A stretch of DNA of 64,000 bases from an uncultured Verrucomicrobiota bacterium. Its GTDB lineage: Bacteria; Verrucomicrobiota; Verrucomicrobiia; Limisphaerales; UBA9464. How positions within the stretch are numbered: position 1 is the first letter of the stretch; the number at the start of each line of letters is the position of its first letter. The stretch lies in the NCBI GenBank assembly GCA_964602595.1, contig CAZRRO010000003.1:413438-477437 (forward strand). The letters run 5' to 3'. Under the pieces are notes generated by a model. That model was not told the origin of the DNA. It did not search any database and saw nothing but the letters and a program-made list of their open reading frames with translations. Made by a program: the position numbers and the translations under genes. This document shows, piece after piece, positions 13,113 to 30,701 of the stretch.

Positions 13113-14489
13113 CTATCGGTCGAGATGCTGGAAAGGGATGGCCTCCCTCGCGGCCAACCATTCGGCAGGAATGCCTGCATGGCCGACCGCCAGCGCGACA
13201 ATCCCGCCGACAATGGCGCAGTTGGTGTCGATGTCGCCGGCGATGCTGGCTGTGGCCCAAAGGGCTTCGCGGTAGTCTTCGAGATGCCGGGCAGCGAGCC
13301 AGAGGCAGACCGGAACGGTGTCGGGGGCGCTGATGCGGCTGCCGTTGCCCAAGATTCGGCCGACATGGTCCGGCGAAGCGAGGAAGGGAATTCGAAGCGC
13401 GGCCGCGATGCCGCGGCGGGTTTCACCATCGGGCGTCAGGTCGTAAGCGGCTTCCAAGAGGTTCGGTGATGCCGGGGCCGGCTTCGTTTGCCTGGCGACC
13501 CATCCGGCCGCCAGTGCTACGGCCACGGCTCCGGCTTTTCCTTCGCGATGGGCGTGGGTCACTTCCGCCGACGCGATGGCTTCCGCCACCAAACGCCTTG
13601 GATCGTCCGCGAAATACGCTCCCAACGGAGCCACACGCATGGCGCCACCATTGCCCAACGAGCCCGTCCCATCGAATGCGCGGCCGGCCGCGTCGATCCA
13701 AGAGACGCCCTCGTGGATTTGACGAAGGATGCCGTGAGCGGTGCCGCCGTAACCCCGACGCGGGTCCAACATGTAGCGAGCGGCAAAGGCTTTTGCGAGG
13801 GATAGGCGCTCAATGCCGCCAAAGCGTTCCAGGGCTTCAACCACTGAAATCGCCATCACTGTGTCGTCGGTGACGAACCAGGGACTCGGCGGATCGAAGC
13901 GGCCGGCGATCCGGCTTCGGAATATGTCGTCGGGCCCGAAGAAGCATTCGCCAAACGCATCGCCCAGCGAGAGCCCCTCAAACGCCAGAGCCGCACGTTC
14001 CATCCGGGCCGCCTGGTCCGACGGAAGCCCGGCCGCAACTCCGCGCACGCCGTCCGGTTGGATCACTCGGTGTGCCGCGATCAGGGATCTGGCCTTACGC
14101 AGCCAACTGGTGGCAATCCACCCGCCGCCAAACGGCCCCACCCGCTCCCACGCCCAGCCGCCGAATCTCAGTTCGTTGATCATCGATTCCACCCGCTCGT
14201 GGTTGGAGGAATGGACGATCACCGGGCAAACCGGCTTTTGCTGCGCCAGCCAAGACGCCACTTCCAAACCGTCGCCCGGATCGCACGTCGCTCCGGGCAT
14301 TCGGTTGAGATCGTGATCCAGCGAGATCAACGAGGTGCGGTGAAGGAACGGCCCCGCCTCCGCCATGAACGCATGGGCCTCCCGCCAAAGACGCAACTCC
14401 GCCGCAGGTTCCAACTGGGCCACCGCCGCCTGAAATGCGGCGATCCGCTCGTCGTTGTCTTCGAGGATGAGGACGGCCGCTCGGTTCAT
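13113..14489 (-). CDS. Receiver-like domain fused to ADP-ribosylglycohydrolase (ARH/DraG family)
   Basis: The N-terminal ~130 aa have a flavodoxin/REC-like pattern (VLILEDND, LISLDHDL, VIVHSSN). The C-terminal ~300 aa carry ARH motifs (GLSLGDAFGE, FVTDDTVMA, GNGGAMRVAPLG, AGDIDTNCAIVGGIVA). The ATG at 14489 overlaps the kptA stop (ATGA). Confidence 0.85.
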   Translation of the reverse strand: MNRAAVLILEDNDERIAAFQAAVAQLEPAAELRLWREAHAFMAEAGPFLHRTSLISLDHDLNRMPGATCDPGDGLEVASWLAQQKPVCPVIVHSSNHERVESMINELRFGGWAWERVGPFGGGWIATSWLRKARSLIAAHRVIQPDGVRGVAAGLPSDQAARMERAALAFEGLSLGDAFGECFFGPDDIFRSRIAGRFDPPSPWFVTDDTVMAISVVEALERFGGIERLSLAKAFAARYMLDPRRGYGGTAHGILRQIHEGVSWIDAAGRAFDGTGSLGNGGAMRVAPLGAYFADDPRRLVAEAIASAEVTHAHREGKAGAVAVALAAGWVARQTKPAPASPNLLEAAYDLTPDGETRRGIAAALRIPFLASPDHVGRILGNGSRISAPDTVPVCLWLAARHLEDYREALWATASIAGDIDTNCAIVGGIVALAVGHAGIPAEWLAAREAIPFQHLDR

Positions 14490-15049
14490 GAGGAACTGGA
14501 GGTTGCGGGTGGCAACTCGATGAACTCCGGCGGCACTTGGTCGGTGAGCCAGACGTGGTTTGGCGTCAGGAAGAAGGCGTGGCCAGCGCGATGCATTTCG
14601 CCGGCCCGGATGGTCAGGAGGATCGGGCGACCTCGACGGGCACCAACCTTCAACGTCATTTCGGTTTCGGCGGAGAGGTGGACGTGATGACGCTGCATCT
14701 TGCAGAGACCCCGCTCGCGGATGGCGGGAAGGAACTGGGCGGCGGTGCCGTGGTAGAGGAGTTCAGGCGGAACCGCCGGAGCATGGTCCAACGCGACCTC
14801 GATCGAATGTCCTTGGTTAGCGCGGATGCGATGTCCGTCGGGACTGAGGGCGAAGCGCTGCTTGTCGCTCGTGCGGACGATCTCTTCGAGGTCGGTTCGG
14901 CTCAAAGCCCGCCCATGCTTGGCCAGTGCCGCGAGTAGGTCTTCCACGGCGATCCAGCCGGCGGAATCCAGGGTGATTCCAATGGTCTCAGGCTGGTGCC
15001 GCAGTACGAGGCTTAGGAACTTGCTCATGGAAACCATCTTGGATCTCAC
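14486..15049 (-). CDS. kptA: RNA 2'-phosphotransferase (Tpt1/KptA family)
   Basis: SKFLSLVLRHQPE..GI.LD..GW..V..LL, KQRFAL..DG.RIRANQGHS, LYHGT, HVHLS; length ~180 aa. The GTG at 15049 overlaps the upstream stop (GTGA). ATG alternatives are at 15037 and 15028. Confidence 0.9.
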   Translation of the reverse strand: MRSKMVSMSKFLSLVLRHQPETIGITLDSAGWIAVEDLLAALAKHGRALSRTDLEEIVRTSDKQRFALSPDGHRIRANQGHSIEVALDHAPAVPPELLYHGTAAQFLPAIRERGLCKMQRHHVHLSAETEMTLKVGARRGRPILLTIRAGEMHRAGHAFFLTPNHVWLTDQVPPEFIELPPATSSSS

Positions 15050-15402
15050 GCCATGCCCCCTGTGAATTCGCGGACGACTTCGATCTCGCCGACAATGTTC
15101 GCGTTGAACTCGGTCAGTTCCTCAGCGGGAACCCAGAGTTCCTGATGCACGCGGCTGCCGACGGTCTCCACCTTGAACTTGGAGAGGTAGTCGGAGCGAA
15201 CGGCGAAGCGGGTCACGTAGCCGGCTCCGGAATCCTTCACATTCCAGTCGCGGGCGATCTGGGCGGCGTATTCCTCGTTGAGCACCGGGTAGAAGATCGG
15301 TTGCTCCGGTAGGCGCGGCGGAAACGCTTTCATGCCGCTGGCGCGGATGAGCGCGAGTTCATTTGGGCCAACAGGGCGGTAAAGCGTGGTGGTCAGATTC
15401 AT
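15046..15402 (-). CDS. Conserved-looking 118-aa protein of unknown function embedded in the ADP-ribose operon
   Basis: MNLTTTLYRPVGPNELALIRASGMKAFPPRLPEQPIFYPVLNEEYAAQIARDWN... I do not recognise a named family. It has 4-nt overlaps with both neighbours (ATGA at 15399-15402, GTGA at 15046-15049) and good GC3 codon usage. Confidence 0.7.
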   Translation of the reverse strand: MNLTTTLYRPVGPNELALIRASGMKAFPPRLPEQPIFYPVLNEEYAAQIARDWNVKDSGAGYVTRFAVRSDYLSKFKVETVGSRVHQELWVPAEELTEFNANIVGEIEVVREFTGGMA

Positions 15403-15845
15403 GCCGTCTCCCTCCTTAGTTCATCCCGGATCGCCATGAGGATGAGCCCCAGCTTGTTCTTGCCGGTGCCATCGCCGCCGTCGCCCCAATAGCGGTCATT
15501 GCGGGTGTGCTCGATCAAATGGACTTCACCGGTGGAGAGGAGCAAGTCACGGAGCCGTGGATGTTGGGTGAACTTCGCTCGCACGGCCTCGGTCATGATG
15601 GCGTCCTTGACCGACTCCCAATCCCGGCGGAGCGGCTTCTTCCGGTCGCGACCGGCCCGTGCGGCGATCATGGGCGAATTGAGCAGGCGGATGCTTTCCT
15701 CGTGTTCCGTGCCCGGGAATTTCTGAGCCTGGAAATAGTGCTCTGCGGTCGGCCAGGTCCGGCCCTTCAACACGATGGGAAACGCGGCGAAATTCGAGAA
15801 CTCACCGTAGGGCTCTTCAACTCGGTAAAAGCGGATGGTGTTCAT
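15399..15845 (-). CDS. NADAR (YbiA/DUF1768) domain protein
   Basis: FYRVEEPYGEFSNF....I.L.G..WPTAEHYFQAQKF ... NDRYWGDGGDGTGKNKLG..LM..R; 148 aa. ATGA overlaps at both ends. Confidence 0.85.
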   Translation of the reverse strand: MNTIRFYRVEEPYGEFSNFAAFPIVLKGRTWPTAEHYFQAQKFPGTEHEESIRLLNSPMIAARAGRDRKKPLRRDWESVKDAIMTEAVRAKFTQHPRLRDLLLSTGEVHLIEHTRNDRYWGDGGDGTGKNKLGLILMAIRDELRRETA

Positions 15846-16678
15846 TGTCCGATTTGATTCAGGCGGGTGTTGAAAGCTTTCAGGACTGCCGAATTTGGCG
15901 ACTTGTCGAAGATGGCAAAGACCACCTTGGTGAAAGCAGTGGCAAAGGAGCCGTTGCCGAGCAGCAGACGAGCAAAGGCGTCGGCGACGAGGGAGGGATC
16001 ATTCCGGAACACTCCGCAACCCCACGCGCCAAGGATCAAGGTGTCCACCTGCTTGGCGACGGCGAGCTGCAGCACGAACTCGGCGCGCCGTCGGAGGGTT
16101 TCGGGCACGAGCGGCAGTTTGGCTGGTTCGTTGTTGGCCAAAGCCCCTGCATTGGGCGCCGGCGAAGTGATGACCGAGGCGATGGCGGGTTCATCCAACA
16201 GCTCACCGTTGTCATCCACGAAGAACGGGACGCCCGGCGAAAAGATGGCCGTGTGCTGATAGAGCAGGCAGCGGCTATTTCGATGACGTTCGTAGAACTG
16301 GGGCTGGCGTAGCAGACATGGATACAGTCCGGACGACCGCGCTAGGGACTCTTCCTGCGCTTGGGCTCCACCGAGAAAGCCGCCGCCGGGATTCTTGGCG
16401 GAGGCAAAGTTCAAGGCGGCGAGGTGTCCGCTCCCGACGCGATGCAATCGGACGATGGCTTCGACCGTGGACTCCGTTGTGACTTCAATCCCGGTCGATC
16501 CGCCGACGCGGACGAGTGTGGAACCGGACATCGGAGTTTCGTGGAAAGTGGTTCCGGCAAGAGCGGGCTGCATCATTGAATTCAGATCAACGGTTGCGCC
16601 GGTCCGGGTCTGGTAGTTTCCGCGCTCCAACAGTTCGAGTGTCTGCTCGGCGAGGCGGATGCGATGGTTTCGGTTCAT
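15842..16678 (-). CDS. Microbial-type poly(ADP-ribose) glycohydrolase-like macro-fold protein (TIGR02452/DUF2263-like)
   Basis: ALNFASAKNPGGGFLGGAQAQEESLARSS contains the PARG signature GGG-X7-QEE. It also has SPGVPFF and LILGAWGCGVF; 278 aa. Confidence 0.8.
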   Translation of the reverse strand: MNRNHRIRLAEQTLELLERGNYQTRTGATVDLNSMMQPALAGTTFHETPMSGSTLVRVGGSTGIEVTTESTVEAIVRLHRVGSGHLAALNFASAKNPGGGFLGGAQAQEESLARSSGLYPCLLRQPQFYERHRNSRCLLYQHTAIFSPGVPFFVDDNGELLDEPAIASVITSPAPNAGALANNEPAKLPLVPETLRRRAEFVLQLAVAKQVDTLILGAWGCGVFRNDPSLVADAFARLLLGNGSFATAFTKVVFAIFDKSPNSAVLKAFNTRLNQIGQ

Positions 16679-16693
16679 GGAGTGAAAGTAGAG

Positions 16694-17383
16694 TTACAGC
16701 CAGAAGCTGAAGCCGCGTTTGCGGAGCTGCTGGTATTTGCGTTCGTCGAAGCGGTGGAGGCGGGCGGCGCGGTGGGCCACGTCTTGCTGGATCTCGCCGG
16801 TGTCCACCAGCAGGCCCATGCCGAGGATCTTTTTCCGGAAGTTGCGTTTATCGAGGCGCTCTTCGAGCACGACTTCGTAGAGGTGCTGGAGCTGGCCGAG
16901 GGTGAACTTGGCCGGCAGCAGCTCGAAGCCGATGGGTTCGTAGCGGACCTTGCCGCGCAGCCGGGCCAGTGCGGTGGCGAGGATGTGTTCGTGGTCGAAG
17001 GCAAGGTCGGGGGCGTCGTCCACGCTGAACCACGCGGCCTGTCGGGCGTCCGTGGCGGCCTGGGGCCTGTGGTCGGCCAGCGAGACGAGCGCGTAGTAGG
17101 CGACGCTGACGACGCGTTCGCGCGGGTCGCGGTCGGGCGCGCCGAAGGTGTAGAGCTGCTCCAGGAAGATGTCCTTCAAGCCGGTTTCCTCGGCGAGTTC
17201 GCGGCGGGCGGCGTCCTCCAGCGATTCCTCCACGCGGACGAAGCCGCCGGGGAGCGCCCATTTGCCCTCGAACGGCTTCAGGTCGCGCTGAATGAGCAGC
17301 ACCTTGAGGTCTCCCTCGTCGAAGCCGAAGACGACGCAGTCCACCGTGAGGGCGGCCCGGGGATATTCGTAGGTGTGTGGCAT
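16694..17383 (-). CDS. nrtR: Nudix hydrolase fused to C-terminal winged-helix domain (NrtR-type ADP-ribose-responsive regulator)
   Basis: Complete Nudix box [26 protein letters not shown]-terminal ~80 aa follows ([33 protein letters not shown]), as in NrtR wHTH domains. It is the first gene of the operon. Confidence 0.85.
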
Positions 17384-17421: not shown

Positions 17422-17763
17422 GAAGTCAAGGCCGGCCTGCCCCAAGCCCATTGACAGTCCGGGCGGCGGGAGAGATGTGTCGAGGGTCTGTTGCAGCCTA
17501 AGCCGACCCGCCTTCCTGCGGATCGGCGCGGGGGAACCAAGTTCCTCAATGCGAATTGAGGGTGGGGCGCACGGCACCGGGTAACCGGGGCCAAGGTCAC
17601 TTCCAAGACCGAGCCCGTCAGCTAACTCCGTCGGCAGCTGGAAGGGCGATCCTCTGGGTCCGCAAGTTGCGGCGCCCACGTTCACCCCGTCTGAAACCGC
17701 GCGGCGGCCTCGTGCCGACGCGCACCGATGCGTCGCGCTCACCCGCGGCGCATCCCTGAAGTC

Positions 17764-18006
17764 ATGAGTGAACTGAAAACAAACGCGCCGCGAACCTGTC
17801 CCGAATGCGGCGGCTCCCACCTCTACCAATCAATCACGGCTTCGGCCGGCACGCATGGTCCGGCGTTGTTGCCGGGCCTGGGCGGTTTCCTGAGCTTCGC
17901 CAAGTTCCGGGTCGTGGTCTGTGCCGATTGCGGCCTGACCCGCTTCTACGCCGAGCCCGACGCCCGTGCCAAACTCAGCGGTTCCAGCCGCTGGTTTCGC
18001 CTCTGA
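17764..18006 (+). CDS. Small zinc-ribbon protein
   Basis: ATG at 17764 (MSELKTN...). Two CxxC pairs (CPECGG ... CADCG) are separated by 44 aa; 80 aa in total. It ends 28 nt before the SPFH gene. Confidence 0.55.
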   Translation: MSELKTNAPRTCPECGGSHLYQSITASAGTHGPALLPGLGGFLSFAKFRVVVCADCGLTRFYAEPDARAKLSGSSRWFRL

Positions 18007-18034: not shown

Positions 18035-19807
18035 ATGAATGCTCCCGTCACGCTCCTGATCGTCCTGCTCTCGGTCCTTTTCGGCCTGAGCGCGCTCTAC
18101 TGGCTGCTCGGCCTGGTCCTCATCGACGAGCGCCAGGTCGGCATCGTCGTGAAACGCTTCGCCGCCACCTCGCTTGCCCCGGGTCGGCTGATCGCGCTCG
18201 CCGGTGAGGCGGGCTACCAGGCCGACACGCTCGCGCCCGGCCTGCACTTCGGCTACTGGCGTTGGCAATATCAGGTATTCAAGGCCCCGGTCACGGAAGT
18301 CTCGCCGGGTGAGATCGCGCTCGTCGTTTCCGCGGACGGCGCGCCCATTCCCGCGGAACGCATCCTCGGGCAGGTCGTGGACTGCGACAGCTTTCAGGAC
18401 GCCCGGAAGTTCCTCGTAAACGGCGGCGAACGCGGACGCCAGTTGGGCATCCTCACGGCCGGCACCTACCGCATCAACACGGCGCTCTTCACCGTGATCA
18501 CCGCCGCGCAGGCGGGCGCCCATGCCATGCACAGGGAGGCGCTGGAAGTTCAACGGGTCGCCCCCGACATGGTGGGTATCGTCACCACGCTGGACGGACG
18601 GCCCATCGAGGCCGGTGAAATTGCCGGCCCGACCATCGCGAACCACGACAACTTCCAGAACGCCCAGGCCTTCGTCACCGGCGGCGGCCGACGCGGCTTG
18701 CAGGAACAGGTGTTGCTCAGCGGCAGTTGGAACCTGAACCCGTGGTTCGTGCAGGTGGAACAGGTCCGCATGGTCGAGGTTCCCATCGGCTCCGTCGGCG
18801 TGGTCATCTCCTTCGTGGGTGCCGCGCACCTCGACGTGAGCGGCGCCGACTTCAAGCACGGCGACCTCGTCAACGTCGGTCACAAGGGCGTGTGGGTTTC
18901 GCCGCTTTATCCCGGCAAACATCCGCTGAACACCCGCATCATGAAGGTGGAACTCGTGCCCACCACGAACATCGTCCTCAACTGGGCCAACCGCACCGAG
19001 GCCCACCATTACGACGCCAAGCTCAACTCCATCACCGTGCGTTCGCGCGACGGCTTTGCCTTCAACCTCGACGTCTCGCAGATCATCCACGTCGGCGCGC
19101 CCGACGCGCCCAAGGTCATCTCGCGCGTCGGTTCCATGCAGAACCTCGTGGACCACGTCCTCCAGCCGATCGTCGGCAACTACTTCCGCAACTCGGCGCA
19201 GGACTACACCGTGCTCGACTTCCTCAGCGCGCGCAGCCACCGCCAGACCGAGGCGGCGGAACACATCCGCGTCGCCATCGGCGCCTATGACGTGCAGGCC
19301 ATCGACACGCTGATCGGTGACATCAATCCGCCCGCCGAACTCATGCAGACGCAGACCGACCGCAAGATCGCCGAGGAACAGCGCAAGACCTACGAGGTGC
19401 AGGAAGCCGCGCAGGTCCAGCGCCAGCAACTCGTCCGGCAGACCTCGCTCGCGGACATCCAGCAACAGGTCGTCGGCGCGGAACAGGGCGTGAACATCGC
19501 CGAATTGAAGTCCAACGCCCACATCAAGCAGGCCACCGGCGAGGCCGAAGCAACCCGCCTGCGGTCGCTCGGCGAGGCCCAGGCCATCCGCGCCACGGGC
19601 ACCGCCAAGGCCGAGGCCTACCGCGCCGGTGTCGAGGCGCTCGGCGCCCAAAGTTACACGCTCATGCAACTGATGCAGGTCGTCGGCGAGCGCAACGTCC
19701 GGATCGTGCCCGACGTGGCCGTGAACGGCGCCGGCGCCAACGGCGGCCTCGTCGAGGGCCTGCTCGGCGTGATGCTGAAGAAGGAGGCCGTCGGGAAGAC
19801 GGCATAA
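18035..19807 (+). CDS. SPFH/band-7 (flotillin-like) membrane protein
   Basis: ATG 18035 preceded by agaaaggaa. N-terminal TM (VTLLIVLLSVLFGLSALYWLLGLVLI) is followed by ERQVGIVVKRF (SPFH start). C-terminal E/A/Q-rich coiled coil is typical of flotillins. Confidence 0.85.
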   Translation: MNAPVTLLIVLLSVLFGLSALYWLLGLVLIDERQVGIVVKRFAATSLAPGRLIALAGEAGYQADTLAPGLHFGYWRWQYQVFKAPVTEVSPGEIALVVSADGAPIPAERILGQVVDCDSFQDARKFLVNGGERGRQLGILTAGTYRINTALFTVITAAQAGAHAMHREALEVQRVAPDMVGIVTTLDGRPIEAGEIAGPTIANHDNFQNAQAFVTGGGRRGLQEQVLLSGSWNLNPWFVQVEQVRMVEVPIGSVGVVISFVGAAHLDVSGADFKHGDLVNVGHKGVWVSPLYPGKHPLNTRIMKVELVPTTNIVLNWANRTEAHHYDAKLNSITVRSRDGFAFNLDVSQIIHVGAPDAPKVISRVGSMQNLVDHVLQPIVGNYFRNSAQDYTVLDFLSARSHRQTEAAEHIRVAIGAYDVQAIDTLIGDINPPAELMQTQTDRKIAEEQRKTYEVQEAAQVQRQQLVRQTSLADIQQQVVGAEQGVNIAELKSNAHIKQATGEAEATRLRSLGEAQAIRATGTAKAEAYRAGVEALGAQSYTLMQLMQVVGERNVRIVPDVAVNGAGANGGLVEGLLGVMLKKEAVGKTA

Positions 19808-19898
19808 ACGCACACACCCGACGCGGCCTCGGGAACATCACGCAGTTGCCGGGGCGTGCGTGCTCGCCGTCGCCCCACAGGTAACGCTGGAGAACAGG

Positions 19899-20939
19899 TC
19901 AACGGGTGATCCGAAGGCGAAAGAAGCGAACCTCTGAATCAAATGGCACCTCCACAGAAGCAACCGAGCCATCGCCCCCGATCTCATCACCCAAGGGTTC
20001 CCACACGGCGGAATCCGGCGTATCCGCCTGCTCGAACTGATAGAAGCCGCCTGGCTGTGTCAGGGCGCGAAGTTGCAGCCCTTCGCCAGTTTGTTCGGCC
20101 ATCAATGACGGTGCTTCCGGCGCGCTCCCGCCGACAGTGAACCGGAACACGGGGCTAACCGTCCGCACGCCGTCCGTGACCTGGACGATCTTCCAGTAGT
20201 TGGTGGAGCCAGGAGAAAGACCGGTTAAGCTCCAACTCGGCTCGAAGGCAGTTCCAAGCAGTTGGGCGGAGCCAAGACTGGCCGTGGAGCCCAGATAGAC
20301 CTCGTATTCGACCGACGCGGGTAGGACTTCGAGGCGAACCCCGTCCACTCGGGCCGCACAGCTTTGCGCCGAGCCAATCTGGTTGGTCACCGAAAAGGTC
20401 AGCTTGAAAGACTGCCCAAGGTAAGCGCTCACATCCACCTCATGCTGGTTCCATGGAGCAACATTCTCTAAACCGCAAATTGCGTCGTAAATCACTTCGG
20501 CAGTCCGCGAACCGACAACTTGGAGGTCCACCTTGAAGTGAGGCCGTCGTTCGGGATCCCCGAGTCCGGTCGTGTTGTCCCACCACACCAACCGCGCTCC
20601 AGAACCGGTGCCGGGAAGTTTGATCTCTTGGAGTAACACTGCCTCGCTGAAGCGGGGCAAGTTGTTGTTCCTGATTGGTATTTCGGCGAAACGAGTCCCT
20701 TCAAAGGCGCTAGGCGCGTCCGCAGTTACCCGCCAGGGAATCAGAACGCCCCATGCCGCGCTTCCCGATTCGAAGCCTCCATTGGCTACATAGTTCGTGA
20801 GCGAACCCGGCTCCCAGTTCAAAACCAAATCGGTCGGCTGATCATAGGCTAGGTTTGGCGGAAACGTCAGCGTTGGCGCTCCACCCAGCACGGTGAACGC
20901 CAGCAGCACGAGCAGGGAAAGCAACCTTGAGGCGGCCAT
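19899..20939 (-). CDS. Secreted protein: jelly-roll (CBM-like) domain, Ig/FN3-like domain and shared [FY][FY]R[LVN] C-terminal domain
   Basis: ORF 19899-20996; the ATG at 20939 gives signal peptide MAASRLLSLLVLLAFTVLGGA. NGGFESG..AW is typical of CBM4/9-like sandwiches. It ends ...EVRFFRLRITR. Lower GC than its flanks. Confidence 0.65.
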   Translation of the reverse strand: MAASRLLSLLVLLAFTVLGGAPTLTFPPNLAYDQPTDLVLNWEPGSLTNYVANGGFESGSAAWGVLIPWRVTADAPSAFEGTRFAEIPIRNNNLPRFSEAVLLQEIKLPGTGSGARLVWWDNTTGLGDPERRPHFKVDLQVVGSRTAEVIYDAICGLENVAPWNQHEVDVSAYLGQSFKLTFSVTNQIGSAQSCAARVDGVRLEVLPASVEYEVYLGSTASLGSAQLLGTAFEPSWSLTGLSPGSTNYWKIVQVTDGVRTVSPVFRFTVGGSAPEAPSLMAEQTGEGLQLRALTQPGGFYQFEQADTPDSAVWEPLGDEIGGDGSVASVEVPFDSEVRFFRLRITR

Positions 20940-21021
20940 ACTTGGGCAGGCAGCGTGTCCGAACGTCGCCAAGGGTGTCAAATTGCTGCATTCCATCAGC
21001 GTGGGCTGGGCGTCGAGTCAC

Positions 21022-21159
21022 TACACGCTCATGCAGCTGATTCAGGTCGTCGGCGAGCGCAACGTCCGGATCGTGCCCGACGCGGCCGTGAACGGCGGCC
21101 TCGTCGAGGGCCTGCTCGGCGTGATGCTGAAGAAGGAAGCCGTCGCCAAGGCGGCGTAG
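21022..21159 (+). pseudogene. Displaced duplicate of the last 45 codons of the SPFH gene
   Basis: By my manual alignment, 129/138 nt are identical to 19655-19807, plus one 15-nt in-frame indel. It translates YTLMQLIQVVGERNVRIVPDAAVNGGLVEGLLGVMLKKEAVAKAA* versus YTLMQLMQVVGERNVRIVPDVAVNGAGANGGLVEGLLGVMLKKEAVGKTA*. No upstream gene body is present. Confidence 0.8.
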
Positions 21160-21181
21160 CCCGGCCTCGTTGTCCGGCACC

Positions 21182-21207
21182 GCCCCGGGAGCCAACGCTC
21201 CCGGGGC
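21182..21207 (+). terminator. Perfect 11-bp GC hairpin after the SPFH 3'-end remnant (probable ancestral terminator)
   Basis: gccccgggagc-caac-gctcccggggc, 22 nt after the remnant's TAG. No U-tract. Confidence 0.4.
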
Positions 21208-21272
21208 GCAACGGGCGAAGGGAATTGTCCGGAACATTGACGGCGCCTGCCCCGGTGCGGACGCTGGCGTCC

Positions 21273-22460
21273 ATGCATCCCCGATTACTCCGGCTGGGTT
21301 TGGTGTGGTCCTGCGCGTTTTCGCTCCTCGCCGCCCCGCCCAAGCTGACCGGTGTCGGCACCGCGATGCAGGACATGGTTGCGAAGCAGGAGATCGCCGG
21401 CGCGGTCACGATGGTCGTCACCAAAAACAAGGTCCGGCACCTCGAAGCGAACGGTTTCGCCGATGTCGCCGCCCAGAAGCCGATGCGGACCGACACCGTC
21501 TTCTGGATTGCGTCCATGACCAAGCCGGTCACCGCCACCGCCGTGCTCATGCTTCAGGACGACGGCAAGCTGAACGTCCACGATCCCGTCGCGAAATATC
21601 TGCCGGAGTTCGCAAACCTGAAGACGCCGTCCGGCCAGCCCGCCAACCTCACCATCGTCCAGATCCTCACGCACACCTCCGGCCTCGGTGAAGCCGGAGG
21701 CCCGGCCGCCCGCGAGGCGAAGACCCTTGCCGACCTCGTTCCGCTCTGGCTGGCCGCGCCGATGCAATTCGAGCCGGGCAGCAAATGGAGCTATTGCCAG
21801 AGCGGCATCAACGCCGCCGGCCGCATCGTCGAGGTGGTCAGCGGGATGAGCTTCGACGCCTTTCTCCATAAGCGTCTCTTCGGCCCGCTGGGCATGGAGA
21901 GCACGACGTTTTACCTGGGCGAACCCGAGCGCGCCCGGCTGGTGACCGCCTACGCCAGGAACAAGGACTCCGGCCAGCTCGAAGCCGTGCCGCCGCGCCC
22001 GGAATTCGGCCCACGCGACCGCCCGCCACAGGGCAACGGCGGGCTTTACTCCACCGCCGAAGACTACGCGCGCTTCTGCCAGATGCTGCTCGGCGGCGGG
22101 AAGTTCAAGGGCCGCCGCTACCTGAGCGCGGAGGCGTTGAAGCTCCTCTCCACTCCGCAGACGCCGGACACCATGCCCGTCGGCTTCTTCCAGAACGAAA
22201 CCTACGGCAAACGTGGCCTGAACTACGGCTGGGGACTCGGCTCCTGCGTCCTCAAGGCGCCGCACGACGGCGTGCCCGCGATGCTGTCACCCGGCACCTT
22301 CGGCCATGGCGGCGCGTGGGGCACGCAGGCATGGATCGATCCCGTGAAGGGTGTCGCCTACGTGCTGATGGTCCAGCGCTCCAACTTCCCCAACAGCGAC
22401 GCCAGCGACGTCCGCCGCGCCTTCCAGCAAGCGGCAGTGGAGGCGTTGGGGAATCGGTGA
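21273..22460 (+). CDS. Secreted serine hydrolase, beta-lactamase (class C/PBP4-like) family
   Basis: ATG 21273 (MHPRLLRLGLVWSCAFSLLAAP signal). S-x-x-K nucleophile motif FWIASMTKPVTA, plus LLTHTSGL-like ILTHTSGL and HGGAWGT near the C-terminus. Confidence 0.85.
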   Translation: MHPRLLRLGLVWSCAFSLLAAPPKLTGVGTAMQDMVAKQEIAGAVTMVVTKNKVRHLEANGFADVAAQKPMRTDTVFWIASMTKPVTATAVLMLQDDGKLNVHDPVAKYLPEFANLKTPSGQPANLTIVQILTHTSGLGEAGGPAAREAKTLADLVPLWLAAPMQFEPGSKWSYCQSGINAAGRIVEVVSGMSFDAFLHKRLFGPLGMESTTFYLGEPERARLVTAYARNKDSGQLEAVPPRPEFGPRDRPPQGNGGLYSTAEDYARFCQMLLGGGKFKGRRYLSAEALKLLSTPQTPDTMPVGFFQNETYGKRGLNYGWGLGSCVLKAPHDGVPAMLSPGTFGHGGAWGTQAWIDPVKGVAYVLMVQRSNFPNSDASDVRRAFQQAAVEALGNR

Positions 22461-22520
22461 TGGTCCACTGGTTTCGACATTGCGGCGTTGGGAAAAGCAT
22501 GATGAACGAACTGTAAACAT

Positions 22521-23138
22521 ATGCCTTACCAACCTCTTCTTCCCGGCTTTCAAGAACCGCCGCCGGGAAAAGACGGTTCGAAACCGCTTGGTAGGCAGGG
22601 TGGAAAAGACCACCTGTTTCTCGCGGTCCTGCCTGAACCCGATGCCGCCTCCTGCATATTCGAATTGGGACAGTTGGAGAGCGCCAAACACGGCTTGAGG
22701 GGAAAGCCCATCGCGAAACAGCGCCTCCATGTAACCCTTGCCTCTCTCGGACATCATTCCGGCCGGCCCGAACCGGTCCTCGCGGCGGCTGACGCGGCCG
22801 CCCGGACGATCACTGCAGCAACATCGCCGTTCGAAGTGGGATTTCATCGCGCAGGCAGCTTTGTCGGCAGGCCGGGCAACCGGCCATTCGTGCTCCGGGA
22901 CGACGGCAGTAACTCCGCCTTGACGGTGGTTCAGGAGCGGCTCTGGGTAGGTTTGGTAGGCAAAGGCAGGTCCGGTTTTACTCCACATGTAACTCTGCTT
23001 TATGACGAACAACTCGTTCCCGAACAGGAAGTCCGGCCGATCCGCTGGAGCGTCAGCGAGATTGTGCTGATCCACAGTTTCGTCGGCCAGTCGCGCTACG
23101 AAACGATCGGAAGGTGGAGGTTGCGCGGCGGGAATTGA
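22521..23138 (+). CDS. 2H phosphoesterase superfamily protein (LigT/2'-5' RNA ligase-like)
   Basis: Two H-x-T-x motifs with the expected spacing: LHVTLASLG (aa ~70) and PHVTLLYD (aa ~156). N-terminal HLFLAVLPEP matches the first strand of LigT-like proteins. The 331-aa minus ORF 22287-23282 is its shadow. Confidence 0.8.
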   Translation: MPYQPLLPGFQEPPPGKDGSKPLGRQGGKDHLFLAVLPEPDAASCIFELGQLESAKHGLRGKPIAKQRLHVTLASLGHHSGRPEPVLAAADAAARTITAATSPFEVGFHRAGSFVGRPGNRPFVLRDDGSNSALTVVQERLWVGLVGKGRSGFTPHVTLLYDEQLVPEQEVRPIRWSVSEIVLIHSFVGQSRYETIGRWRLRGGN

Positions 23139-23245
23139 TTCTGCGGAAAGGCTAACGAAATGGTGAGATCGCCTGTGCGGACAGTTTTCCGCAGCGGTCC
23201 TGCCAAACCTATCCCAAAGGGGTGGAATTGGAGGCGCGTTATCAC

Positions 23246-23294
23246 ACAACAAAACTGTTGCTACCATATCGGCGTAAAGCAACAGTTGCGTTGT
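23246..23294 (+). promoter_or_regulatory. 16-bp imperfect inverted repeat (9-bp perfect core) abutting the ATPase-1 start codon
   Basis: acaacaaaactgttgc (23246-23261), 17-nt loop, gcaacagttgcgttgt (23279-23294). 14/16 positions pair; the core is aactgttgc/gcaacagtt. The right arm ends 2 nt before ATG 23296. Confidence 0.4.
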
Positions 23295-23295
23295 T

Positions 23296-24561
23296 ATGAA
23301 TGAAACCCAACCAGTGCCCAGGCTATCACGCAGTCTTGTTGGGCAAATCCCCGACCCAAGCGAACTCTACGGCCGCGAGGACTTTGTCCAGCATCTCTGG
23401 AAGCTGATTGAAGCAAACAATGTCCTGCTGCTGGCACCGCGCCGGTTCGGAAAGAGCGGGGTGATGCGGCATGTGCTGCTGCATCCGCAGCCGCAATACC
23501 TGCCGCTGGCGTTCGAGTTGGAAGACGTGGATTCCGCCGAAGAATTCGTGTGGCGGGTCACCAGGGAACTGCTCAGCCAAGACTCACTCCGATCCTTGCT
23601 CAGTCAGGCCAAGAAGCTGCCATCGGGAATCATGTCGTGGGTCAAGGGGACTTTCGACGAGGCAGAGTTCGAGGGAGCCAAGATCAAGTTCAAGGCCCAG
23701 TTGAAGGAGGACTGGCGAGAAGCGGCTAGGCGGATGCTGACCGAGTTGGAGAAGGCCGATCAAACCATCATCTTTTTGTTCGATGAACTACCGGCCATGT
23801 TGGACCGGATCATCGAGAAGCAGGGAGAAGCCGCCGCCCGGGACTTCCTGGCTTGGTTCCGCACCGTGCGTTTGGAGCAGAAGGATGTCCTGCGCCGTCA
23901 TCGCTTCATCGTCGCGGGCAGCGTTGGTATCGACCAAATTCTTCGGAAGCTTGATGCAAGCGACAAGCTGGTGGATTTCGCCCGCCTGACCGTCGAACCT
24001 CTCGACGATCCCACTGCACAAAAGCTGGCTGAGGATTTAGCCGCCACTTTCTCGATCACTTGGAATGCCGAGCTGTCAGCGGAGCTTTTTCGCCTGATCG
24101 GTGCGCCCGTCCCCTATTTCATCCACATTTTCTTTGCCCAAGCGGGCCAGCTTCCGCTGGCGCAACGCTCACAGCTTACGGCGGCGACTTTGGCGCAGAT
24201 TTACCAAGATCGCGTGCTGGGGCCGACCTGCCGCCATTACTTCAACCACTACAGCAGCCGGTTGAAACGCTACGGCAAGATGGGTGAAAAGGCCGCCTTC
24301 GCGATTCTGCGGGCGGTGGCCAGCCAGGGGCGGATTTCACGACCCCAGTTGTATGACATCTACCGCAAGAGCCGGGGGCGAGGGGCCAGCGATCAGGACT
24401 TCGACGAGCTCATGGCGGATCTGGAATACGACTGGTATCTCCAGCTCGCACCCGCCACCAACGAGTTTTATTTCCGGCTCAAGGTCATGCAGGACTGGTG
24501 GCGGCGCTGGTATCCGGCGGCGGCAGCCAAGAAGAAGGTGGCCCGGAGGAAGCAGTCGTGA
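23296..24561 (+). CDS. AAA+ ATPase (archaeal-ATPase/ORC-like P-loop) with C-terminal winged helix
   Basis: LYGREDFVQHLWKLIEANNVLLLAPRRFGKSGVM (Walker A), QTIIFLFDELP (Walker B, hhhhDE), C-terminal AILRAVASQGRISRPQLYDIY (wHTH-like). 421 aa. Confidence 0.75.
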   Translation: MNETQPVPRLSRSLVGQIPDPSELYGREDFVQHLWKLIEANNVLLLAPRRFGKSGVMRHVLLHPQPQYLPLAFELEDVDSAEEFVWRVTRELLSQDSLRSLLSQAKKLPSGIMSWVKGTFDEAEFEGAKIKFKAQLKEDWREAARRMLTELEKADQTIIFLFDELPAMLDRIIEKQGEAAARDFLAWFRTVRLEQKDVLRRHRFIVAGSVGIDQILRKLDASDKLVDFARLTVEPLDDPTAQKLAEDLAATFSITWNAELSAELFRLIGAPVPYFIHIFFAQAGQLPLAQRSQLTAATLAQIYQDRVLGPTCRHYFNHYSSRLKRYGKMGEKAAFAILRAVASQGRISRPQLYDIYRKSRGRGASDQDFDELMADLEYDWYLQLAPATNEFYFRLKVMQDWWRRWYPAAAAKKKVARRKQS

Positions 24562-27242
24562 GCCTCGTTGCTCACAAATACACGCCAGGGGAAATGTCGC
24601 CGGCCGAGTTGGAGGCAACGTTCGCTGCGCGCGGACACACCGTGGACTATCTGGTCAAATCGCTGCGCGACCAGATTCACTCCGGCACTCTCTCCAGCTT
24701 CGTCATCACCGGCCCGCGCGGCGCGGGCAAATCCACGGTCATCCAGATGGTTGCCCTGCGGATACGGCAGGATGCCGAACTCCATGCGGCTTGGCTGCCA
24801 GTCGTCTTCCCGGAAGAGCAGTTCGACATCGTGAGTCTGCGCGATCTCTTGGCGGCTGTCCTCCGCTCGCTTGTGAAGGATGGAATCGCGTCCGCTCAAG
24901 ACTGGTTGACCAAGGTAGAGGCCGAGACCAACGACGAGCAAAGCCAGCAGCTTGCCATCACCGGCCTACGTGAAATCACGCGCAAGGAAGGCCGCAGGCT
25001 CGTTCTGTTCGTGGAGAACCTGGACACGTTGCTCGAGGACGGGCTCGACGACCAGATGAAGGGCACGCTGCGTCGCCTGCTGATGACCGATCCGGTGATG
25101 ATGATCATCGGCAGCGCGGTCCACATCTTCGATTCGCTGAAAGATTACGACGAGGCGTTCTTCAACTACTTCGGCCAGGTGCCGTTGGACCGCCTCGATA
25201 CCGAGCAGGTCATCGAATTGCTGAGGCGGCGAGCCACGTTCGACGGCAACGAACCGTTCCTGCGTGACCTGCCCAACCAGTTGGCCAAGGTGCGCGCGAT
25301 CGTCCACCTCTCCGGCGGCAATCCCCGGTTCATCCTCATGCTCTATGAGCTGCTGAGCCAGCGGCAGGTCACCACCATCGTGCAGTATCTTCGCCGGCTG
25401 GTGGACGAACTGACGCCCCTGCTCAAGGACGAGATGGAAAACCTCCCGGCCCAGCAGCGGAAGATCATCCACGCCCTGATGGAAAGAGGCGGCACCGCCC
25501 AGCCCACCGACCTGACCGGGCCGACGCGCCTGCCGTTGAACGCCATCACCACCCAGCTCAGGCGGCTCAAGGACGCGCAGATTGTTGAGGTGCTCGGCGG
25601 CGGCAAGGGCCGGGCCGCCAACTATACTGTCCCCGACAAGCTCTTCTCCATCTGGTATCAGATGCGTTACCTGAGCCAGAACCGGCGGCGCATCGAGGTG
25701 TTCGTGGAGGTGCTCCGTGTCTGGTTCGAGGAAGAGGAACGGCTGCATCGGCTGCGGAGCCTGGCCGAAAAGGCCCGCCAAGATGCGCCTCTGATGCTGC
25801 GGGACAGTGCGACGGAGGCGGAATACCTAGCGGCTTCGCTCAAAGGGACTCCTCACGAATCCTTGGCGACCGAGCTGTGCATCAATCACTGGATCAAAGC
25901 GGACCTCCGGGAAGCAGCGATGGCCTATGCCACGCTGCGTGGAGGCGAAAGCGACAGGCTACTGCTGGATGAGATGCAAGCTCACGCGGAACTGGGTGTT
26001 TGGCTGTCCGATCACGGCGATAACCAGACAGCGATTGCAGCCCTTAACGAAGTAGTTAACCAAAGACCCGTCGACCGCATCACTTTGGCCAAGGCTCTGT
26101 TCCGCCGTGGCCTTGCCAAGCACCAGACGGGTGACATTGATGGCGCAATCAAAGACTACACCTCCCATATTGAACTGGACGGCGCTCCAAATGAGTTGGC
26201 CGCCTTTCCTTTGATTACCCGTGGCCTTGCCAAAGAGCAGATGGGCGACATCGCCGGAGCGATCAACGACTATACGTCTGCAGTCGAACTGGAGGGCGCA
26301 TCCAAAGTGAGCGTAGCTCGTGCTTTGGTTAACCGCGGCTTAGCCAAGGTTCAGACTGGCGACATCAGCGGAGCGATCAACGACTACACATCGGCCGCAG
26401 GACTAGAGGGCGCTTCCAGGGAGCAAGTCGGACTTGCCTTGTTCAATCGCGGCCTGGCCAAGGACCAGCTCGGCGACACTACCGGAGCGATCCAAGACTA
26501 CACCACCGTCATCGGGCTGGAGGGAGTCTCTAAGGAACAGGCTGGCATCGCCGTGTTCAATCGTGGGATTGCCAAGGATCGGTCGGGCGATAGTGCGGGA
26601 GCAATCATGGATTATGCAGCCATTATTACATTGGAAGGTGCCTCCAAGAAGCTTGTCGCCCGCGCCTTATTCAACCGCGGCTTCGCCAAGGGTGAAATGG
26701 GCGATACCGTTGGAGAACTTGATGATTACGCTGCTGTCATCGCGCTGGACGGCGCTCCTAAGGAACATGTTGCACGCGCGCTCTTTAACCGGGGAATCCA
26801 CTCGCTAGAGCACGCGGATCAGGCCGCTGCAATTGAAGACCTGTTGCGAGTGATAGACTTGGCGGTCGTGTCCGAAGCCCTACTCACAGACGCGACCAAC
26901 GTCGCCTTCACAGTGTTGAAACATGATCGCCTCAAAAGGGAAGATGTGCTCCAGCGGTTCTCGCAAGTCGTCGGTAACCTGCCGGAGAATGAAGCTCGCG
27001 ACGTTATCCTTCAGCTTCTTAGTGGACTCGCTTCTCTTGAGATGAAGGATGCTTGGTCCGAAGCCTGGAAAATTCTCACGGCATCGCGGCAGGCCAAAGG
27101 CAAGGAGGCACTCCAGTTTCTGGAACCCGTGGCCAAAGTCCTCGCCGGAGAAGACCGCATACTTCTGGATGCCCTGCCCCCAGAGCAGCGCGAATTCGCC
27201 AACCAAGTTTTGACCCGCTTCGAAGCCAAGCAAACCGGGTAA
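24558..27242 (+). CDS. AAA+/STAND-like ATPase, wHTH and 7 x 38-aa TPR-like repeats
   Basis: GTG 24558 overlaps the ATPase-1 stop (GTGA); alternative ATG at 24594. Walker A is FVITGPRGAGKSTVI; the Walker B-like motif is RLVLFVENLD. wHTH region: QRKIIHALMERGG.AQPTDL..........ITTQLRRLKDAQIVEV. Then comes the repeat LFNRGLAK.Q.GD..GAI.DYT..I.LEGASKE.V..A. Confidence 0.75.
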   Translation: MSLVAHKYTPGEMSPAELEATFAARGHTVDYLVKSLRDQIHSGTLSSFVITGPRGAGKSTVIQMVALRIRQDAELHAAWLPVVFPEEQFDIVSLRDLLAAVLRSLVKDGIASAQDWLTKVEAETNDEQSQQLAITGLREITRKEGRRLVLFVENLDTLLEDGLDDQMKGTLRRLLMTDPVMMIIGSAVHIFDSLKDYDEAFFNYFGQVPLDRLDTEQVIELLRRRATFDGNEPFLRDLPNQLAKVRAIVHLSGGNPRFILMLYELLSQRQVTTIVQYLRRLVDELTPLLKDEMENLPAQQRKIIHALMERGGTAQPTDLTGPTRLPLNAITTQLRRLKDAQIVEVLGGGKGRAANYTVPDKLFSIWYQMRYLSQNRRRIEVFVEVLRVWFEEEERLHRLRSLAEKARQDAPLMLRDSATEAEYLAASLKGTPHESLATELCINHWIKADLREAAMAYATLRGGESDRLLLDEMQAHAELGVWLSDHGDNQTAIAALNEVVNQRPVDRITLAKALFRRGLAKHQTGDIDGAIKDYTSHIELDGAPNELAAFPLITRGLAKEQMGDIAGAINDYTSAVELEGASKVSVARALVNRGLAKVQTGDISGAINDYTSAAGLEGASREQVGLALFNRGLAKDQLGDTTGAIQDYTTVIGLEGVSKEQAGIAVFNRGIAKDRSGDSAGAIMDYAAIITLEGASKKLVARALFNRGFAKGEMGDTVGELDDYAAVIALDGAPKEHVARALFNRGIHSLEHADQAAAIEDLLRVIDLAVVSEALLTDATNVAFTVLKHDRLKREDVLQRFSQVVGNLPENEARDVILQLLSGLASLEMKDAWSEAWKILTASRQAKGKEALQFLEPVAKVLAGEDRILLDALPPEQREFANQVLTRFEAKQTG
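26097..26894 (+). repeat. Tandem 114-bp (38-codon) coding repeat array, 7 copies
   Basis: Repeat starts verified at 26097, 26211 and 26325 (exact 114-nt period). The copies are diverged at nucleotide level and the last is degenerate. Confidence 0.8.
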
Positions 27243-27287
27243 CTCTTCGAAACCGTCAAGCGTTGAGCAAACGGTGAAATGCTTCGT

Positions 27288-28859
27288 TCATTTCTGGATG
27301 ACGAATCCCGCATTAACCCAGTCGGCGAAGTCCTCGCGGGTGCCGTCGCCGGCGTCCATGGTCACGAGGCTGATCCGTTTGGCGCCGGACGGGATCTCCA
27401 CGTTGAAGCGCCAGGCGGGGAACTGCACGCGCATCACCGGGCTGGTGGCGACTTCGCGGCCGTCGAGCAGGACCTTGAAGACCACGCTGGGATACCTCGC
27501 CAGGTTCGAGCCGTTGCTGGCGGCGACCAGGTTTTCGTCAGCGCCGGCCAGCGCGACGAAGCGGCGGTATTCGGGCTTCACCTCGTAGGTGAGTTCGCAC
27601 GAGGCGTGGACGCCGAGTCCCTGCGCGAACGTGGTTCGGTCCACGCGGAGTTCCTGGCCGAGGTTGGAACGGTCTTTCTGCGGCGCCTGCGTGTTGCCGG
27701 AGTAACGGACCTGTCCGCCGTAGGTGTGGCCGAAGCCGACGCTGCGGAGCGGCTTCAGGTCGCCCAGCGCGATGTCGGGCGCGGGCGGCCGCGGCAGCAG
27801 GCGCACGAACACGCCTTCGGATTCCAGGCACACGGAGCGGCCGGCCGCGAAAGCTGACGTGCGGAGGCGTGTGGTGTTCGTGACGCGGAACGGCTCGGTG
27901 TAGAGCGGTGAGGCGGTGGTCGGCGCGGAGCCATCGAGCGTGTAGCGGATCTCCGCGCCGGGTTGCAGCGGGGCGGTGAGCGTGACGGTGACCGGTTCCT
28001 CGAACAGGTGCGGGCGCTGGGTCGTGCCCCACGGCGTCACGCGCACGGGGTCCACCACGGCGTCGCGGTCCCAGCGGCCCAGCTTGGTCAGCTCGGCCTG
28101 AAAGCTGATGGTGGGCGCGAGGAACTTCTCGAAGTGCTCGACAACCTGCGCTGTGTTGAGGTCGGGCGTGAAGCTGCGCGCCGGATCGTAGCCGGGATGC
28201 GCATCGGTCATGTCCCGCGCGAGCACGCACTTGAAGCCGGCGGACTTCATCGCCTTCAGCCCCATCGGCTTTCCGAGCAGGCAAACCTGCGTGTGAAAGC
28301 CCACGTAGATGAGGTGCGTGAGCCCGAGTTGCTGGCAGAGTGCATAGACCTCGGCCTGGGTGTCGGGCATGAAGTCGGCGGCGCCGATCCGCAGCCTGGG
28401 ATGCATGCCGTCCCAGCCGTAGTTCACGGCGCAGTGTTCGCGGCCGCAGGCACAGCCGCCGGCATCGGGGGCGTCCGGGCACTGCACGTCCACGACCTGC
28501 GGAACCGTCACCTTGGGTAACGCCAGCACGGCCTCGCGCTGGGGATAGCCCACATAGTTGTCCACCACGTCGCTGGGGCACAGCATCACCGTCATGCCGA
28601 GCTCGCGCGCCGCGTCGAGGGCGCGGTTCAGGCGCGGGACGAAGGCGTCCACGCGCATCGTGGCGGTCTTGCACCAGTGGTAGTTCCACACGTCCACGGC
28701 GATCACGCCGACGTGGCGCGGGTCCACTTCTTCTGCCCGCGTGCGGATCACGCCAGTCGCGGGGTCGCGGGTTTGGAGGTCCAACGAGTGAGCGTGCGAG
28801 GCAAACGTGGCGGTCAACGCGGCCAGCAGCAGTGCGGGGAAGCGGAGGAACGAGCTCAT
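27288..28859 (-). CDS. Secreted isochorismatase-like cysteine-hydrolase fold, chitobiase/FN3-like domain and C-terminal NPCBM-like domain
   Basis: ATG 28859 (MSSFLRFPALLLAALTATFASHA signal). VGVIAVDVWNYHW ... THLIYVGFHTQVCLLGKPMGLKAMKSAGFKCVLARDMTDA matches the isochorismatase-like core. IRYTLDGS.PT..S..Y is chitobiase-C-like. GLGVHA..ELTYEV...YRRFVALAGADEN....VVFKVLLDGREV is NPCBM-like. Confidence 0.75.
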   Translation of the reverse strand: MSSFLRFPALLLAALTATFASHAHSLDLQTRDPATGVIRTRAEEVDPRHVGVIAVDVWNYHWCKTATMRVDAFVPRLNRALDAARELGMTVMLCPSDVVDNYVGYPQREAVLALPKVTVPQVVDVQCPDAPDAGGCACGREHCAVNYGWDGMHPRLRIGAADFMPDTQAEVYALCQQLGLTHLIYVGFHTQVCLLGKPMGLKAMKSAGFKCVLARDMTDAHPGYDPARSFTPDLNTAQVVEHFEKFLAPTISFQAELTKLGRWDRDAVVDPVRVTPWGTTQRPHLFEEPVTVTLTAPLQPGAEIRYTLDGSAPTTASPLYTEPFRVTNTTRLRTSAFAAGRSVCLESEGVFVRLLPRPPAPDIALGDLKPLRSVGFGHTYGGQVRYSGNTQAPQKDRSNLGQELRVDRTTFAQGLGVHASCELTYEVKPEYRRFVALAGADENLVAASNGSNLARYPSVVFKVLLDGREVATSPVMRVQFPAWRFNVEIPSGAKRISLVTMDAGDGTREDFADWVNAGFVIQK

Positions 28860-28969
28860 GGGGAAGGCTCGGGGACGGTAGAAACGCACCAAGTCGCCGA
28901 CGAGGATTCTTTCCACCTCTGGCGGCGCCTGTCGGTCCGGGCCGTGCGCAGTTGCGTTGAGGCTCCCGC

Positions 28970-30612: not shown

Positions 30613-30615
30613 TGG

Positions 30616-30654: not shown

Positions 30655-30701
30655 CTTGAATGAGGCAGAGCAGTAGTGCCGCCCTACCGGGTGATGATGC
30701 C

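Follow-up and report, generated by a model that had tools for sequence, protein, structure and literature searches.

What kind of event leaves a single accessory gene enclosed between two copies of the end of another gene? This question is raised by a locus in a 64,000-nt stretch of DNA from an uncultured Verrucomicrobiota bacterium of the Limisphaerales (contig CAZRRO010000003.1, assembly GCA_964602595.1), which as a whole is called the window here and to which all coordinates given without a contig name refer. The affected gene (18035–19807, plus strand) encodes an SPFH/Band-7 (flotillin-like) protein of 590 aa, counted from the ATG of an open reading frame (ORF) that opens at a GTG at 17966, and Band_7 is the sole Pfam domain of this protein (E = 5.7e-25). 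An earlier reading made from the DNA letters alone, referred to below as the original prediction, had described the 3' end of this gene as duplicated around a segment of lower GC content and had interpreted the arrangement as the scar of an insertion. Our comparison with related loci points to an insertion that left the SPFH gene intact, with its last seven codons supplied by the incoming DNA. We favor, with a probability of roughly 60%, homologous recombination without a dedicated recombinase, mediated by a fragment of the SPFH tail that the incoming DNA carried with it.

The duplicated gene end

The two copies of the SPFH gene end are direct repeats. Copy 1 (19655–19807, 153 nt) forms the in-frame end of the SPFH ORF up to and including the stop codon, and copy 2 (21022–21159, 138 nt) has a stop codon of its own. 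Alignment reproduced exactly the predicted 129/138 identities that remain once a single 15-nt indel is removed; the indel, which encodes GAGAN and is present in copy 1 only, can be placed anywhere in 19724–19745. The nine substitutions between the copies are distributed unevenly, with three before the indel, none in the following 40–47 nt, and six in the last 22 nt, a segment to which the stop codon belongs. The window contains exactly two occurrences of a 36-nt core of the repeat, compared with zero expected in 100 shuffles, and no third copy of the SPFH tail, degenerate ones included, was detected in the 64 kb. Measured from start to start, the repeats are 1367/1352 nt apart.

The copies enclose one minus-strand ORF (19899–20942), which has the signal-peptide-like N-terminus expected from its earlier description as a single, opposite-strand gene for a secreted protein. 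A 91-nt spacer separates it from copy 1, and 79 nt lie between it and the junction with copy 2. The perfect GC hairpin reported behind copy 2 is real as well, its stem measuring 12 bp with a 4-nt loop (21181–21208, plus strand) rather than the 11 bp given originally (21182–21207). This terminator-like structure lacks a T-run and folds with z = -3.5 relative to shuffled sequences. Fold analysis revealed no significant terminator structure after copy 1.

Positions 19756–21072 recur with 100% identity in a Logan contig from an independent assembly (L081, SRR15669520, 1317 nt), which spans both inner junctions. As this contig ends within the identical stretches of the copies on both sides, it is proof of the inner junctions themselves, whereas their connection to the chromosome lies beyond its reach.

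Empty sites and a chimeric gene end

If DNA was inserted at this position, relatives should carry an SPFH gene that is followed directly by the hairpin, and such empty sites were found twice among 165 related loci compared together with 6–10 kb of flanking sequence. The closest public relatives are metagenome-assembled genomes (MAGs) of freshwater Verrucomicrobiota. One of them, a Lake Mendota MAG contig (L001) recovered in a scan of one genome per species, encodes an SPFH protein with 99% aa identity to that of the window (~95% at the nt level) and has the gene order NrtR, Zn-ribbon, SPFH, hairpin and Beta-lactamase-family gene, with a single tail and without the cargo. The second empty site (L086, ~95% nt identity), found in a scan of metagenomes, likewise consists of SPFH, the same hairpin and the Beta-lactamase-family gene, and also lacks the cargo. 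In both relatives the ~95% nt identity with the window SPFH gene persists until at most 5 nt before the stop codon, behind which the hairpin is conserved. In the window, the Beta-lactamase-family serine hydrolase gene, the native downstream neighbor of SPFH, is located at 21264–22460 on the plus strand (Pfam Beta-lactamase E = 1.1e-75; 92% aa identity in L001).

The positions at which copies 1 and 2 differ are informative about the origin of each part. At the four 5' sites (19669, 19675, 19716 and the 15-nt indel), the single tail of L001 has the copy-1 state throughout and that of L086 has it at three, whereas both relatives show the copy-2 state at all six sites of the last 22 nt, followed by the copy-2-type hairpin and intergenic sequence (Fisher's exact test of 5' versus 3' site states, p = 0.005 for L001 and p = 0.033 for L086). 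Copy 1 differs from L001 at three positions in its first 131 nt and at six in its last 22 nt, and this jump places a breakpoint inside the gene. The site states therefore indicate that copy 1 is native up to ~19785 (19655–19785, which holds the GAGAN segment and the 40–47-nt crossover stretch) and foreign in its last 22 nt (19786–19807), where the incoming tip (...EAVGKTA*) differs from the displaced one at 6/22 nt. They also indicate that copy 2 is native from ~21091 onward (to 21159, ...EAVAKAA*). Judged by these sites, the two copies are reciprocal chimeras, as a single crossover with a circular (or ends-in) donor bearing an SPFH tail would give.

The original prediction had taken copy 2 to be the original gene end. 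This holds for its 3' part and for the hairpin, whereas its 5' part (21022–21090) most likely arrived with the insert. The 5' part carries an M>I and a V>A exchange as well as a five-codon deletion, all at positions that are conserved otherwise; among about 150 other tails listed, the V>A exchange and the deletion occur in none and the M>I exchange in only three, suggesting that this part has been non-coding for some time. The inserted unit, delimited by the repeat spacing and by L081 and absent from L001 and L086, hence comprises the 1352 bp from 19786 to 21137. In one phase of a circular permutation, it reads new tip, spacer, cargo gene, junction and foreign 5' part of the tail. At this junction J (21021/21022, contained in L081), the region upstream of the cargo gene meets the 5'-truncated SPFH tail, and homology to SPFH begins abruptly at 21022.

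The same architecture in two other lineages

Two further loci among the 165, L007 and L093, also possess a second SPFH tail, and each of them has a close relative with an empty site. Counting the window, there are three events in about 103 non-redundant loci for which 1.2 kb or more of downstream DNA was available. The L007 and L093 lineages have undergone events of this type independently, each with a cargo of its own and without an integrase. In L007 (7544–12297 of JAIXUV010000242.1; empty site L008), repeats of 131 nt with 95% identity enclose an insert of 4.6 kb, which contains the 3' remnant of a Beta-lactamase-family gene and a 1304-aa ORF for the anti-phage sirtuin Dsr1 (NCBIfam NF041818, 1987 bits, cut-off 1400). 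In L093 (3662–6741 of Ga0209056_10014758; empty sites L009 and L090), the repeats measure 251 nt with 87% identity, and the 2.8-kb insert at the SPFH 3' end encodes an ABC ATPase and a putative membrane protein of 548 aa without family match. Across the three events, the copies are thus 87–95% identical to each other. Each of the three loci has one extra tail and no array of displaced tips, and no other locus in the set carries the L093 or L007 cargo next to SPFH.

Both additional cases provide hints to the donor. At its start, the L007 insert brings an SPFH tip of its own as well as a homologue of the native hairpin, and the Beta-lactamase-family remnant ahead of Dsr1 (119 nt) is 83% identical to window 22343–22461. 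These features identify the donor as the SPFH-downstream region of a related chromosome rather than a phage-like attachment site (attP). In L093, 19/19 informative sites in alignment columns 29–88 show the native state in copy 1, and nearly all sites from column 102 onward show it in copy 2. The 5' part of copy 2 departs from the native gene at 14/51 positions. As these differences are mostly synonymous, this part derives from a functional SPFH gene elsewhere and did not arise by duplication of the target. In the middle of the L093 repeats, 99 nt are identical between the copies, whereas both flanks are 20–25% diverged; this suggests that the two copies underwent gene conversion once the insertion had taken place.

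Route of insertion and alternatives

We propose that the incoming DNA would have been a 1352-bp unit, either a circle or an equivalent 'ends-in' fragment, made up of the 5'-truncated 3' end of a closely related SPFH gene with an alternative set of the last seven codons and one gene for a secreted protein. A single reciprocal crossover with the chromosomal SPFH 3' end, within the 40–47 identical nucleotides (reaching to 19785 in copy 1 and 21137 in copy 2), would leave SPFH intact with the incoming tip GKTA* and the cargo gene convergent to it. The old tip AKAA*, the hairpin and the downstream gene would have been pushed 1.35 kb downstream behind a non-coding tail fragment. Such an exchange would presumably pass through the circular or ends-in intermediate and depend on RecA-type recombination, and the first tail-plus-cargo unit would have required one illegitimate join at J.

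Several observations weigh against this proposal. Our searches recovered neither a circular form nor a donor genome, nor did they reveal the window cassette in a second genome; the cargo was found in L081 only. In the window, just three single-nucleotide differences, of which one is polymorphic among relatives, and one indel mark the 5' part of copy 2 as foreign, and the changes resemble pseudogene decay, so that this part could also be a decayed duplicate of native sequence. Gain in the window and loss in L001 and L086 by recombination between the repeats are not polarizable, the three lineages being roughly equidistant; whichever the direction, the structure requires an insertion at some point. 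The window and L007 share their crossover interval, a coincidence that a fixed recombination core would explain as well. Moreover, all comparators are metagenome assemblies, and the evidence accordingly stands at the assembly level.

The alternative that survives best, although we regard it as unlikely, is site-specific integration by a recombinase encoded elsewhere, in which case the unit would be an integrase-less satellite or the remnant of a decayed island and the SPFH tail an attachment (att) site. It would account for three independent insertions within the same ~250 nt of the same gene, for the homology of the crossover intervals in the window and L007, and for an element that restores the gene end in the manner of phage-type attP sites. 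However, a scan of about 35 window ORFs revealed no domain of a recombinase or transposase, in line with the earlier statement that the single-gene cargo comes without an integrase. No integrase or integrative and conjugative element (ICE) is visible in the 64 kb, and none of the three inserts encodes an integrase, serine recombinase or transposase domain. Among 135 ORFs downstream of SPFH at about 60 loci, no recombinase family was matched by at least two, a scan that a single integrase could escape. IMG/VR viral contigs were also scanned for a fragment of the SPFH tail acting as attP, and none of 82 pattern matches was confirmed. Visual inspection of the junction regions revealed no backbone or arm sequence beyond SPFH that is common to the three inserts. 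Fixed att boundaries are not seen either: the repeats measure 131, 138 and 251 nt, and the crossover, which precedes the stop codon by 20–70 nt in the window and L007, does so by ~200 nt in L093, i.e., ~130 nt further upstream (three events, two of them coinciding). The lack of a recombinase, the variable repeat length and the differing crossover positions together argue for homologous rather than site-specific recombination. The original prediction had likened the scar to genomic islands that integrate into the 3' end of a gene and supply a replacement end. Entry at the gene end with a replacement is borne out by the empty sites and the new seven-codon tip, whereas the likeness to integrase-borne islands is not upheld, owing to the missing recombinase and to the variable repeat length and crossover.

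Less probable still is a one-ended homologous event combined with an illegitimate join, through homology-facilitated illegitimate recombination (HFIR) or a donor bridging sister chromosomes, by which copy 2 would be a wholly native duplicate and only 19786–21021 foreign. The 5' parts of the copies differ by only 3–4% in the window and L007, the differences in the window resemble decay of a non-coding copy, and merodiploidy by sister-chromosome bridging in transformation is documented (Johnston et al., 2013, PMC3784515). The foreign 5' part of copy 2 in L093, with 14/51 differences where copy 1 is native at all informative sites, nevertheless refutes the one-ended event for that locus, and a single model for all three events is more economical.

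We also consider it improbable that the arrangement is an assembly artefact, in which an empty-site chromosome and either a separate 1.35-kb circle or the allele of a second strain were mis-threaded through the 40–47-nt identity. The metagenomic nature of the data and the ends of L081 inside the identical stretches would be compatible with such an error, but junction J is present in two assemblies, the same tandem arrangement occurs in two unrelated assemblies of other lineages, and the identical stretch is shorter than ordinary reads and, we infer, than the larger k-mers of common assemblers.

Finally, the idea that copy 2 is the remnant of a full-length tandem SPFH paralogue after a deletion, with the 'empty' relatives produced by recombination between both genes, is very improbable, for even though such recombination would give the same chimeric single gene as in L001 and L086, and the MAG AV5 (QHOP01) contains two different SPFH loci, one each on contigs L009 and L017, which may be paralogues or reflect mixed strains, the 165 loci show no second SPFH body near the first and only three 5'-truncated tails, and three separate histories of paralogue plus deletion with three different intervening gene sets would be needed; this was also the case named originally as refuting an insertion. 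A simple tandem-duplication model was considered and set aside.

The cargo gene

The cargo protein has 347 aa, or 365 aa if translation starts at an upstream ATG at 20996, and it has no match in Pfam, NCBIfam or PADLOC. An AlphaFold (AF2) model with a mean predicted local distance difference test score (pLDDT) of 72.5 and its Foldseek matches suggest a signal peptide, a jelly-roll domain resembling CBM16, CBM61 (carbohydrate-binding modules) and MAM domains, and two beta-sandwich domains, and hence a putative secreted binding protein. Exact-sequence look-ups of the 347-aa form and of the 590-aa SPFH protein returned no match, and that of the 365-aa form returned L081 only, with the same sequence as the window.

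Homologues of the cargo protein are rare, as only ten were found among 5.8 billion proteins. Those with 47–62% identity reside in a different conserved context, between a PAS-histidine kinase/response regulator cluster and an M28 peptidase, and none of those examined adjoins an SPFH tail. The closest homologue (57% identity; L166:248–2371, Logan DRR666269) lies on a short contig in tandem with a second family member, and the latter appears as two separate ORFs (119 and 224 aa), for which a frameshift or an assembly error is the probable cause.

The lower GC content that the original prediction had noted for the cargo was confirmed, with a GC content at third codon positions (GC3) of 0.66 compared with 0.89 for SPFH and 0.87 for the downstream gene. 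It does not stand as a sign of foreign origin, which also counts against our proposal: in their own context the homologues have a GC content of 0.59 and a GC3 of 0.69 in genomes with a GC content of 0.64–0.67. Lower GC as proof of foreign origin was accordingly rejected, the homologues being equally GC-poor in a conserved chromosomal context.

Surroundings of the SPFH gene

Upstream of SPFH, the window contains an RNase R gene, a cluster related to NAD and ADP-ribose, and a small Zn-ribbon gene. The minus-strand cluster (13113–17383), with a GC3 of 0.71–0.78 below that of its neighbors, comprises genes for an ADP-ribosylglycohydrolase with a cREC receiver, KptA/Tpt1, a 118-aa ORF without Pfam hit, NADAR, a microbial PARG and an NrtR regulator. 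The PARG gene has no counterpart in L001, the DNA of which matches this part of the window only at ~15073–15403 and from 16696 on. Defence annotation of the neighbors with PADLOC gave one weak NADAR-type match only. The Zn-ribbon gene (17728–18006, 92 aa) is a companion of SPFH that lies upstream of it in the window and the closest relatives and directly downstream in L015, L019, L023 and L052, which suggests a functional pair with shuffled order.

Downstream of copy 2, the Beta-lactamase-family hydrolase gene is followed by genes for a LigT-like protein, an AAA ATPase, a STAND-NTPase/TPR protein and an NPCBM-domain protein, and further on by those for a protein without known function, enolase and tRNA-Ala. 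Homology to L001 ends at 22453, a few bases from the stop codon of the Beta-lactamase-family gene, and the next 5 kb (within 22453–30660) have a lower GC content of 0.55–0.62 and encode the LigT-like protein, which has a 2',5'-RNA-ligase fold, the AAA ATPase and the STAND-NTPase/TPR protein (914 aa). The distance from SPFH to enolase amounts to 1–3 kb in L005 and L006, compared with 10.9 kb in the window, and the entire interval looks like a variable region. A single ORF of 3508 aa (32419–42945) directly follows the tRNA-Ala gene.

The SPFH 3' end as an edge of variable DNA

In pairs of closely related loci, SPFH homology typically ends 5–50 nt before the stop codon and the DNA downstream is unrelated, as for L126/L131 at 96% identity and L007/L088 at 91%. 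The ORFs downstream of SPFH are also highly diverse, 135 of them matching 160 Pfam families. These homology stops and diverse downstream genes mark the SPFH 3' end as the left edge of a variable region, for which the conserved tail is an obvious homology anchor. The 3' half of the gene (last 700 nt) retains 85–90% DNA conservation between lineages with unalignable flanks, and the tail motif YT(L/V)MQLMQIVGERNVRIVPDVAV hardly varies from Verrucomicrobiota to cyanobacteria.

Other repeats were observed at some of these loci. In L006, a 1.1-kb gene lies between the two copies of a 52-nt direct repeat (7696–7747 and 8866–8917) that begins immediately behind the SPFH stop codon. The SPFH gene itself is flanked by 61-nt repeats in L020 (2962–3022 and 5328–5388) and by ~150-nt repeats in L023 (3335–3486 and 5414–5564), the latter with an extra inverted copy and the look of a miniature inverted-repeat transposable element. 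Near-identical verrucomicrobial SPFH contigs (among L001, L011, L014, L018 and L025) bear the labels Kapaibacterium, Haliangiales, Pyrinomonadaceae, Bifidobacteriaceae or Chitinophaga, which are probably due to mis-binning.

Comparison with known systems

Insertions that bring a replacement for the 3' end of their target gene are familiar from phage 21 and e14 at icd, and from ICESt1, ICESt3 and the integrase-less cis-mobilizable elements (CIMEs) at fda. As in the locus described here, an element-borne end keeps the gene intact, direct repeats flank the insert, and empty sites exist; in contrast to these integrase-mediated elements, no integrase was found here in cis or nearby, crossover position and repeat length vary, and a common backbone is missing.

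A closer resemblance is offered by the rhs loci, at which C-terminal displacement was attributed to homologous recombination with small circular intermediates in a two-step model (Jackson et al., 2009, BMC Genomics 10:584, PMC2935791). In that work, core fragments vary in length, the old tip is shunted downstream, displacement is limited to closely related cores, and strings of dissociated tips occur at one locus; related arrays are reported for effector-immunity loci of type VI secretion systems (Kirchberger et al., 2017, PMC5361080). Orphan cdiA-CT and Rhs-CT modules as well as mafB cassettes are also related to rhs displacement. The likeness extends to an intact gene followed by a 5'-truncated fragment of its conserved 3' region with the former tip, and to incoming DNA that brings a new tip and one or more adjacent genes on fragments of variable length without a recombinase. 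On the other hand, the host is here an SPFH/flotillin-like scaffold gene and not a polymorphic toxin, the tip spans ~7–15 residues (seven in the window) instead of a toxin domain, and each locus has one displaced tail instead of an array. The cargo is not an immunity gene either, but a secreted CBM-like protein on the opposite strand (window), Dsr1 (L007) or an ABC transporter (L093). By this comparison, the anatomy and the proposed mechanism would match C-terminal displacement of the rhs type, here at a non-toxin SPFH gene.

Two further processes share parts of this pattern. Campbell-type insertion-duplication and merodiploid formation during natural transformation (Johnston et al., 2013, PMC3784515) likewise proceed from a single homologous segment to an insertion flanked by a duplication, with reciprocal chimeric copies; the cited work concerns a laboratory or transient population phenomenon, whereas the product is fixed in natural lineages here. 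HFIR, as represented in PMC5361080 (de Vries and Wackernagel, 2002; Prudhomme et al., 2002), resembles the present case in that a conserved gene serves as the homologous anchor by which unrelated DNA enters beside it. However, it normally replaces or deletes recipient DNA without importing a second anchor, whereas an imported anchor fragment is seen in L093.

Implications

The principle of displacement is not new; what is new is an integrase-free insertion of the displacement type at a non-toxin gene, recurrent in related lineages. Most accessory genes are found in small islets without a visible mobility gene, and their route of arrival usually remains unclear. In the present case the scar is readable, and the empty sites, the reciprocal chimeras and the three events describe a concrete integrase-free route through a conserved gene end carried by the incoming DNA. 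For annotation, a short in-frame duplicate of a gene end may serve as a usable marker of such insertions and of the original boundaries. The displacement anatomy is not confined to toxin loci, and it can deliver defence genes such as Dsr1 in L007. We further entertain, tentatively and with considerable doubt, the wider possibility that the SPFH tail is a general docking site across Verrucomicrobiota for recombinase-free cassettes with their own portable tail fragment, which would loop out and re-insert by homologous recombination alone and thereby move accessory genes between lineages. If so, C-terminal displacement of the rhs type would extend from polymorphic toxins to an ordinary housekeeping gene and would act as a generic means of cassette exchange.

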